Origin: Podarcis cretensis
Lineage: Eukaryota
Reading direction: 5' to 3'
Length of the DNA: 64,000 nt
Assembly (NCBI GenBank): GCA_951804945.1
Contig: OX638151.1
Location: 81,964,001 to 82,028,000, forward strand
Shown in pieces: positions 23,252-25,057 of this stretch. The notes under the pieces are model-generated. The model did not search any database. It was not told the origin of the DNA and worked only from the letters and a program-made list of their open reading frames with translations. Both the position numbers and the translations under genes were made by a program. Position 1 is the stretch's first letter; the number at the start of each line of letters is the position of its first letter.

Positions 23252-24953
23252 ATATCCTTTATGTCACTGTATTTTTTATTGAGGTGCATTGTTGTTATTG
23301 CGTCCTAACTTAATGTATTTATTTCTTTGTCTCAGAAAATGTAAAGCAGTCCACAGTGGCTGGCAAGCACCCCAAAGTTTGAATGAACCTGGTTAGATAG
23401 AGTCCAAGCAGGCAAGCCAAAAGACACCTTAAAGTTCAAGCTTCAAGGAATAAAGAGGGAGGGTGGAAAAAGATAAAAAGAAAACTGGAAGAGGGGAAGT
23501 CCTTTTTCAAGGAAAAGACAAAGCCACAACACCAAGTTAAGGCTTCGGCTTTCCGACATTTGCTCAAGTTCCAAAGTCAAAGCCAAGTCTGATTTGGTTG
23601 GTTCTCCGGCCCTTGTCAAGTCCATCTAGCAAGCCCTAAAGAGTAAAGGTCAAGATCAAGTGACATGGAGGTAACTGCCAAAGTTTCCTTTTGTATCTTA
23701 TCGCTCAAGCTCTTACGTTGCAGTCAAGAATTTGTTTGTTTATAACTGTTTTAGTTTAAAATATTGCTTCCTTAAATTGGTACAAGAGAACTGTATGCAA
23801 ATATTTGTTCGCTTTTCCATGAGTCATTTTCCTAACAGAATAGATTTCATTGGAATACTGAAACATATCAGTAATTTAGATGATCTGGTGACATATTTTT
23901 GTGGCATTTACAGCTATTTGTTTTAAATATTGGGAGTAAAGGAGGAGGAAAAACAAGTCAGCTGTTTATAGATATGAACAATGTCTGCAGTAAATCAGAA
24001 CAGAAGTAATGAACTGAGGCTGCTTACCTGAGAGTAAGCCACATTGACTTCAGTAGGACTTCCTCAGTAGATATGGTTAGGAGTACACATCTAGATAATA
24101 TTATTTTCCACATCTAGGTAATATTTCCTATTAGTGCGTCGAGTTTAAGGGCCTTCAAATAAGGTGCACACCTTAAATATTTTTGCTTTAGTTTAGTTAT
24201 GCATTAATGATGTAGGGACTCCAAAATACACAGCGAGTCCCTTCCTACCATTCATTCCTTTGCCATTCAGTTCTGTAGAGAAACAACTCTGTGTGCCCAC
24301 AGACATGACATTGAAATGGAGGGGAAACCACTGTGTGTGGGAATTTCATGTGCATTTCAGTGTACACATGAGTTTCTGAATAAGGGCACCTATACTTTAA
24401 AGGCATTTATTATTACCTTGTTTCTGCATGTCATTGAGCTGCCTCATACTTTTTGTGGCAATCCAGGTATACTGACTGGTACTTGCTGTGACACACATAC
24501 AAAGTGTGAAAGAAAGATGCACATCTTGCAGAATTTTGTGGGCCTTGACACCTACTGGGTTCCCTTGAGAAAGATGGGGCTTGCAAAACAAAGCGGGGAT
24601 GACAACATGACTAGGGCAGTGGGCTCTGACAGATGCCTGAGCTTGCCATTCTCTGGAGTCAACACTGTTTTGAAATATGCATTGTACCCTGGACGGGGAG
24701 TTGTGGCTAATCCTAGTTTCCCAGCGTGCTTGTGGTTGTGTGTCTTCCTTCCATACATATATATATATACAACCAAACACACTGCTGGAGTTCTGCTGTA
24801 TTTGAGTGGCAATATAAAGTATGAAGCAGCTCTCAGCTTAAGTGGCATATCAAAATAACTTGCTTTTTAAAGTATCTGGAGTAATTTGGTCTATGTTACA
24901 TGATACAATTTTTTGCTTTGTGCATGTTTAAAGCGTCCTTAACAGACAGTCAT
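23252..24953 (+). other. SRSF12: U12-type (minor spliceosome) intron of SRSF12, apparently with AT...AT termini
   Basis: 5' splice site ATATCCTTT at 23252 and branch site TCCTTAAC at 24936-24943. The frame-restoring 3' end (CA|G TTT GAA = Q-F-E) follows CAT at 24951-24953. Confidence 0.88.
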
Positions 24954-25057
24954 GTTTGAAGATGTTCGTGATGCAGAAGATGCTCTTTATAACCTCAATA
25001 GAAAGTGGGTATGTGGCCGGCAAATTGAAATACAGTTTGCACAAGGTGATCGCAAAA
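24954..25057 (+). CDS. SRSF12: SRSF12 coding exon 3 ([34 protein letters not shown])
   Basis: Second half of the RRM, 104 nt, A|GTAAGT donor. The 5' boundary is inferred from frame and branch-point spacing. Confidence 0.92.

Follow-up and report, generated by a model that had tools for sequence, protein, structure and literature searches.

A nested exon paralogous to SRSF10 exon 3, and a likely poison route, within the AT-AT minor intron of SRSF12 in Podarcis cretensis

The closest described counterpart of the arrangement reported here lies in SRSF10, whose exon 3 is an autoregulated unproductive exon that is reached from a major donor in competition with the minor one and terminated at a poly(A) site; its paralog SRSF12 is omitted from the expression figure in the accessible part of that study (Meinke et al. 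2020, PMC7244321). Exons embedded in a minor intron and mutually exclusive with the upstream exon are also described for Tmem87b and Mapk9, which SRSF12 resembles in that its upstream exon is likely skipped, but the swap in those genes keeps a protein according to the accessible part of the source (PMC6717393), whereas the swap in SRSF12 is predicted to bring an early stop and its nested exon is only probably joined to exon 1. Vertebrate twintrons share with SRSF12 the presence of U2 sites inside a U12 intron that compete for one region, with the difference that the U2 sites of SRSF12 bound an internal exon and those of twintrons, in the accessible descriptions, a single alternative intron. 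SRSF12 is absent from the 18 genes in Table 1 of the twintron survey and from the accessible text of a 2021 review of spliceosomal crosstalk (Janice et al. 2013, PMC3564746; PMC8329584).

AT-AT is a rare but regular intron ending, of which the accessible part of Sheth et al. gives six human and six mouse cases. The AT-AT ending of SRSF12 is already catalogued for the human gene and is not new, contrary to what the original prediction for this locus had implied. The accessible supplement of de Wolf et al. (2021) lists the human intron (chr6:89105531-89107153) as U12 AT_AT (PMC8280824), and the accessible tables of Parada et al. (2014) support it with 203 reads in 8 tissues, 8 cDNAs and 19 ESTs (PMC4176328). 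What appears to be a new addition to the SRSF10-type nested major/minor arrangement is the nested exon of SRSF12 together with its RNA-supported acceptor AG at 24932-33.

Positions are given for the window, the 64-kb stretch of DNA that was analysed, and all features lie on its + strand. In the corrected gene model SRSF12 spans 19170-26484 and encodes a 256-aa SR protein in five coding exons: exon 1 (coding part 19170..19234, from the ATG to a GTAAG donor), exon 2 (23147..23251, ending in the letters CA of the RNP1 Gln codon), exon 3 (24954..25057, beginning FEDVRDAED), exon 4 (25252..25393) and exon 5 (coding part 26130..26484, to the TAA). The gene model is supported by a protein match at exon 1 and by an RNA joint at exons 2 and 3. 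The protein equals RefSeq SRSF12 isoform X2 (P0041, common to Podarcis muralis and Lacerta agilis) save for a 20-aa alternative segment, and a separate SRSF10-like locus is present on contig C8, which together support the assignment to SRSF12 made in the original prediction. When the genome was searched with exon 3, the best-scoring candidates comprised one SRSF12 locus, one SRSF10-like locus and two distant loci. A retrocopy or repeat as the origin of the RNA joints described below is rejected, as this search found one SRSF12 locus and the nested exon matched only itself, in both cases among the best candidates scored. In exon 5, an alternative acceptor at 26188-26190, 60 nt into the exon, would drop 20 RS-domain residues, and the resulting 236-aa protein would be identical to the lacertid isoform X2.

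The second intron (23252..24953, 1702 nt) begins with the A-type U12 donor ATATCCTTT (23252..23260), which has a single + strand copy in the window, and carries the U12 branch site TCCTTAAC at 24936..24943; on the + strand, the whole 64-kb window holds a single copy each of ATATCCTT and TCCTTAAC. The terminal AT (24952..24953) lies 11 nt from A24942 and 12 nt from A24941, within the branch-to-acceptor optimum of 11-13 nt that the accessible text of a review gives for U12 introns (PMC3584512). The donor, the branch site, the AG, AC, AG and AT dinucleotides near the 3' end and the start of exon 3 at 24954 are all located where they had been predicted, and the acceptor distance holds as well. The two motifs, the branch-to-end distance and the excision of the intron at these termini in RNA together define an A-type U12 intron, in agreement with the type originally assigned. 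Translation of 11 acceptors in the corrected gene model gave, for 24953, the 256-aa protein with RGFAYIQFEDVR, so that the junction after 24953 restores the canonical RNP1 as had been proposed.

RNA support was drawn from four of the 24 listed sequencing runs (X8, X21, X17 and X4), which were aligned to 23170-24988. X8 and X21 derive from organism B, a close relative that shares about half of the window's words, and X17 from organism C, which shares all of them; X17, X8 and X4 consist of contigs that no record identifies as RNA, the tissues are not recorded, a filter drops records and depths are poor measures. A joint 23251>24954, placed without ambiguity and with the ends AT..AT, occurs in X8 as a contig of depth 68.2 and in X21 as 2 raw reads with 2 starts, which confirms the predicted AT-AT termini. 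Its restriction to two of the four runs, both from organism B and with 2 raw reads only, counts against the overall interpretation given below. X17 and X4 neither show nor deny the joint because exon 2 has zero depth in both. Base 24953 was read as T with no other letter both in an X17 record (23666-24961) and in an X8 record (24932-24983). The two findings that were to speak against the original prediction, a joint at AC 24947 and a C at 24953, were thus not made.

The human SRSF12 intron is like that of the lizard in its position within RNP1, its donor, its branch site, its AT end and its three AGs, and differs in length (1623 vs 1702 nt), in the first exon base, which is A (ATA) in place of G (ATG), and in a CT that replaces the AC at 24946-47. 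By eye, 27 of the final 31 intron bases are identical in an ungapped comparison that includes all three AGs. Retention of the human intron rises from 0.19 to 0.63 in ZRSR2 mutants, with an adjusted P of 0.11, in the accessible data of de Wolf et al. (PMC8280824). In the accessible supplement to PMC6717393, the MIDB table marks SRSF12 as a 'HumanOnly' minor-intron gene against mouse, which counts against the interpretation given below. Despite this mark rodent gene models read LVM- or LIM-FEDV, implying an AT end, and the mark may reflect an annotation gap or a loss.

The consequences for annotation were followed in 189 proteins ranked by search score, a non-random sample of which 99 are SRSF12-like. 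The RNP1 junction is canonical in 58 of these 99 and distorted in 41, and the residue that precedes FEDV in the 41 non-canonical models is Ile in 27, Met in 10, Arg in 3 (frog), Val in 1 (bat) and Thr in none. The Ile or Met of 37 of these 41 models is what read-through of an intron with an AT end would be expected to give, judging from such annotation errors, and the read-through type spans snakes, an anole, Xenopus and many mammals. It is therefore likely that gene predictors avoid the AT-AT junction, and it is mainly for annotation that the AT end matters. A sequencing error at 24953 is rejected, given the T in two runs, the human AT and the Met or Ile in 37 of the 41 read-through models, none of which has the Thr that an AC end would give. 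Separately, the frog proteins with Arg (P0034, P0036 and P0038) suggest that the orthologous intron perhaps ends in AG there, and Xenopus laevis P0037 points to AT.

Between the branch site and the terminal AT lie an AG (24944-45), an AC (24946-47) and a second AG (24948-49), all checked on the sequence (24944..24949). The original prediction took them for competing acceptors. On this view they would be used at meaningful rates, for instance by pairing a GT at 23269 with AG 24949 to insert seven residues in frame into RNP1. This pair is in frame in the lizard, both AGs are conserved in human, many database models carry insertions from a similar pair (QYPLFHFM in two snakes, QYPLFYFI in mammals), and the human rows for event classes CAT6, 7 and 8 carry no coordinates in the accessible table. 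None of the four runs holds such a joint, however, the AC is not conserved, and the AC and the AGs lie only 5-6 nt, 3-4 nt and 7-8 nt respectively from the branch adenosines, as opposed to the optimum of 11-13 nt; the models moreover differ mutually as would be expected of predictors forced to GT-AG. Use of these sites at such rates is accordingly considered very improbable. No joint to 24946, 24948 or 24950 was found in the four runs, in which raw reads are few and low-level use is possible.

The AC at 24947 is in frame as had been claimed and would give QVMFE in a 258-aa protein, and 24945 and 24949 give frameshifts. As an acceptor it is rejected on the grounds that no RNA joint in the four runs ends there, that it is off the optimum distance, that human has CT and that QVMFE or QVIFE occurs in 0 of the 189 proteins. 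The crowding of dinucleotides exceeds chance only mildly, since among 1621 8-nt windows of the same intron an AG is present in 45%, two AGs in 7.5% and an AG with an AC in 8.1%. The terminal AT and G24954 form an in-frame ATG, which had been proposed as a multiplexed start codon, a proposal that finds no support in the human ATA or in the protein sample, where no protein starts MFEDV. The ATG seems to be a by-product of the choice between CAG and CAA in the split Gln codon, because human has CT for the AC and ATA for the ATG. Both AGs are kept from lizard to human though neither is used by a joint in the four runs.

Competition by the major spliceosome at the 3' end was nevertheless foreseen correctly in general, as it is a different AG that is used. 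An AG at 24932-33, preceded by a T-rich tract (24909..24933), forms a major-type acceptor 20 nt upstream of the U12 acceptor; three bases separate it from the branch motif, and the human intron carries an AG at the corresponding position. It is joined from a donor exon 1.26 kb upstream by a GT..AG joint 23670>24934, which is present in three of the four runs (X17 depth 60.4, X8 depth 56.4, X21 1 read). An idea taken from mammalian gene models, that this exon feeds AG 24945 or 24949, is rejected as the RNA shows AG 24932-33. The nested exon itself covers 335 nt (23336..23670), has stops in all three frames and a GT donor at 23671, and is preceded by a major-type acceptor (23296..23335) with CTAAC at 23305, a T-rich tract and AG 23334-35. 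In each of the four runs the bins of the nested exon exceed the intron that follows in depth, and retained intron on both sides also occurs in contigs. The exon is spliced at GT-AG sites, as the joint shows directly on its 3' side and as the contigs that start at 23333-23335 make probable on its 5' side. Four X21 reads that leave 23670 have a consensus that agrees with the start of exon 4 at 24 of 30 positions, as against 7-8 for three other targets, and because of this match the nested exon probably also skips exon 3 and joins exon 4 directly.

Sequence comparison shows that the nested exon and SRSF10 exon 3 are paralogs. In blastn searches the nested exon matches the SRSF10 intron of the same genome with E values of 9e-9 and 1e-7, and an alignment with SRSF10 exon 3, from the acceptor onward, scores 182 compared with a maximum of 40 in 200 shuffles. 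It has a single match in its own genome, itself, where the search scores best candidates only. Part of it is matched in all four mammalian gene models tested, with 63-78% amino-acid identity and E values of 1e-7 to 2e-10. The SRSF12 module is like the nested module of SRSF10 in being set in the same intron of a paralogous gene with a homologous internal exon, the minor route leading to protein and the major route, as predicted for SRSF12, to an early stop. The differences are that the SRSF10 intron ends in AC both in this genome and in human whereas that of SRSF12 ends in AT, that SRSF10 exon 3 is joined to a downstream major donor of exon 2 whereas no such joint occurs in the four runs for SRSF12, and that the SRSF10 route ends, in the accessible literature, at a poly(A) site or at a rarely used U12 GT donor, whereas the SRSF12 exon begins no more than 84 nt behind the U12 donor, carries a GT donor of the major type and continues to AG 24932-33 or, probably, to exon 4. 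Of the two genes, only SRSF10 has been shown to regulate itself in this way. The SRSF10 minor intron of this genome (C8:30195697-30197389) has AT-AC ends, contains a U12 GT donor GTATCCT and has an AG 3 nt before its AC; as in human SRSF10, a further AG lies just upstream of its branch motif.

In all four isoforms modelled with the nested exon, the reading frame ends after 41 or 66 codons, at a distance of 416-654 nt from the last junction and hence farther upstream than the 50 nt by which poison exons are recognised; therefore nonsense-mediated decay is predicted. Transcripts with the nested exon reach a depth similar to that of the productive ones, which counts against a poison exon insofar as efficiently degraded RNA need not be so. 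With exon 1 outside the aligned stretch, the runs show no 5' joint for the nested exon, and this too weighs against the interpretation. The X17 contig that starts at 23335 is predicted, among six candidate partners, by exon 1 only; contigs of X8 and X4 start at 23333, a position that the exon 1 end of the window does not predict and that would require exon 1 to end differently in the species concerned, again a point against. No joint from any GT in 23263-23291 to 23336 was found among the few reads that the four runs have there, and such introns would measure 45-73 nt. Downstream of the nested exon splicing and read-through continue, and no pile of ends is listed, although contigs cannot show ends; an AATAAA is present at 23449. 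The exon is 60% purine compared with 49% in the intron behind it. It contains no AGAGA, the motif of the SRSF10 enhancer region, and this counts against the interpretation.

The loss of this enhancer-like motif would suit another explanation: the nested exon regulates nothing and is a degenerating leftover from the duplication that gave SRSF10 and SRSF12, spliced opportunistically while the slow minor intron persists. No used counterpart of the downstream major donor of SRSF10 appears in the RNA, a review warns, in its accessible text, that events of this kind may be opportunistic (PMC8329584), and SRSF12 knockout mice are reported, as far as accessible, to show no overt change, which also counts against a regulatory role. 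A leftover would hardly be expected to keep its sequence from lizard to mammals and between paralogs though all three frames are closed, nor to have a human AG at the same place as AG 24932-33 and, in X8, a joint with a depth close to that of the productive joint, and this explanation is regarded as unlikely. Less likely still is that the nested exon is an alternative first exon from which the ATG at 24952 (200 aa) or an exon 4 ATG (161 aa) gives an RS-domain protein without a working RRM. Here the depth of X21 rises slowly over 23336-23475, no 5' joint was seen, the ATG at 24952 is exonic in the nested-exon isoform and open for 200 codons to the normal stop, and a mouse isoform that lacks the RRM has been recorded (P0009). 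The acceptor with its T-rich tract is, however, conserved with that of SRSF10 exon 3, the X17 start fits exon 1, three ATGs lie upstream within the nested exon (4-7 ATGs precede 24952 in the isoform), and the codon concerned is ATA in human and reads Ile in 27 and Met in only 10 of the 41 read-through models.

The preferred reading, to which we give a probability of roughly three in four, is that AT-AT splicing of intron 2, likely by the minor spliceosome, leads to the full protein, and that the GT-AG route through the nested exon is predicted to bring an early stop and to lower SRSF12 output. Both joints, the motifs and the paralogy to SRSF10 exon 3 are observed, and the nested exon is likely a poison route predicted to compete with U12 splicing. 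In this reading exon 2 would be joined to 24954 by the minor spliceosome, which would complete RNP1, with U11/U12 reading ATATCCTTT and TCCTTAAC and selecting the end that lies 11-12 nt from the branch A, regardless of the letter in which it ends; the AC and the AGs 3-8 nt away may be passed over because the end is chosen by this distance. The major spliceosome would define the nested exon and proceed from exon 1 to the nested exon and on to AG 24932-33, or exon 4. Exon 2 would be skipped, since its U12 donor is incompatible with a U2 acceptor and an intron that starts at one of the GTs behind that donor would measure only 45-73 nt. Since use of AG 24932-33 makes the U12 branch site exonic, the two routes are probably mutually exclusive, and steric competition between U2AF and the U12 snRNP is a plausible, putative basis.

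A wider scenario is possible but doubtful. SRSF12 may have kept the poison exon of SRSF10 from before the split and rewired it, its acceptor set against the branch site so that U2AF and the U12 snRNP contend over 15 bases, with the weak AT end kept under selection to slow the productive route and binding of SRSF12 or SRSF10 setting SRSF12 levels in the testis and brain of amniotes. If the preferred reading is true, control of SR-protein dose by the minor spliceosome extends from SRSF10 to its paralog, and the locus provides a compact natural system in which to test how the major and minor spliceosomes compete for a single 3' end, one genome holding both the AT-AC and the AT-AT paralog.

In the output of Whippet, CE denotes a core exon and AA an alternative acceptor. 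The accessible tables of de Wolf et al. show 'CE,AA' events up within the SRSF12 intron of ZRSR2-mutant cells (PMC8280824), and those of Olthof et al. (2019) list for human SRSF12 in testis CAT3 (upstream exon skipped), CAT6, CAT7, CAT8 and CAT9 (cryptic exon), with CAT6 and CAT7 also in cortex and with alternative 5' and 3' sites among the events of the intron (PMC6717393). These tables are consistent with use of the nested exon in human, the identity of the events being presumed because the accessible rows give no coordinates. A study by Leclair et al. of 2020 reportedly treats poison exons of SR genes, may cover SRSF12 and could then lower the novelty. A literature search whose reach did not extend to that study returned no published description of the nested SRSF12 exon in the accessible text of its sources; the names SRSF12 and SRSF10 do not occur in Lareau and Brenner (2015), and the accessible parts of a 2025 SRSF12 preprint and of Shkreta et al. 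(2024) contain nothing on the nested SRSF12 exon.

Elsewhere in the minor intron, 24023-24065 is a short repeat-like piece to which, in three runs, contigs unrelated to the locus align with loose ends; in organism B five letters replace 24066-24114. A further U12-type donor motif, GTATCCTTT, lies at 62346 on the + strand of the window.
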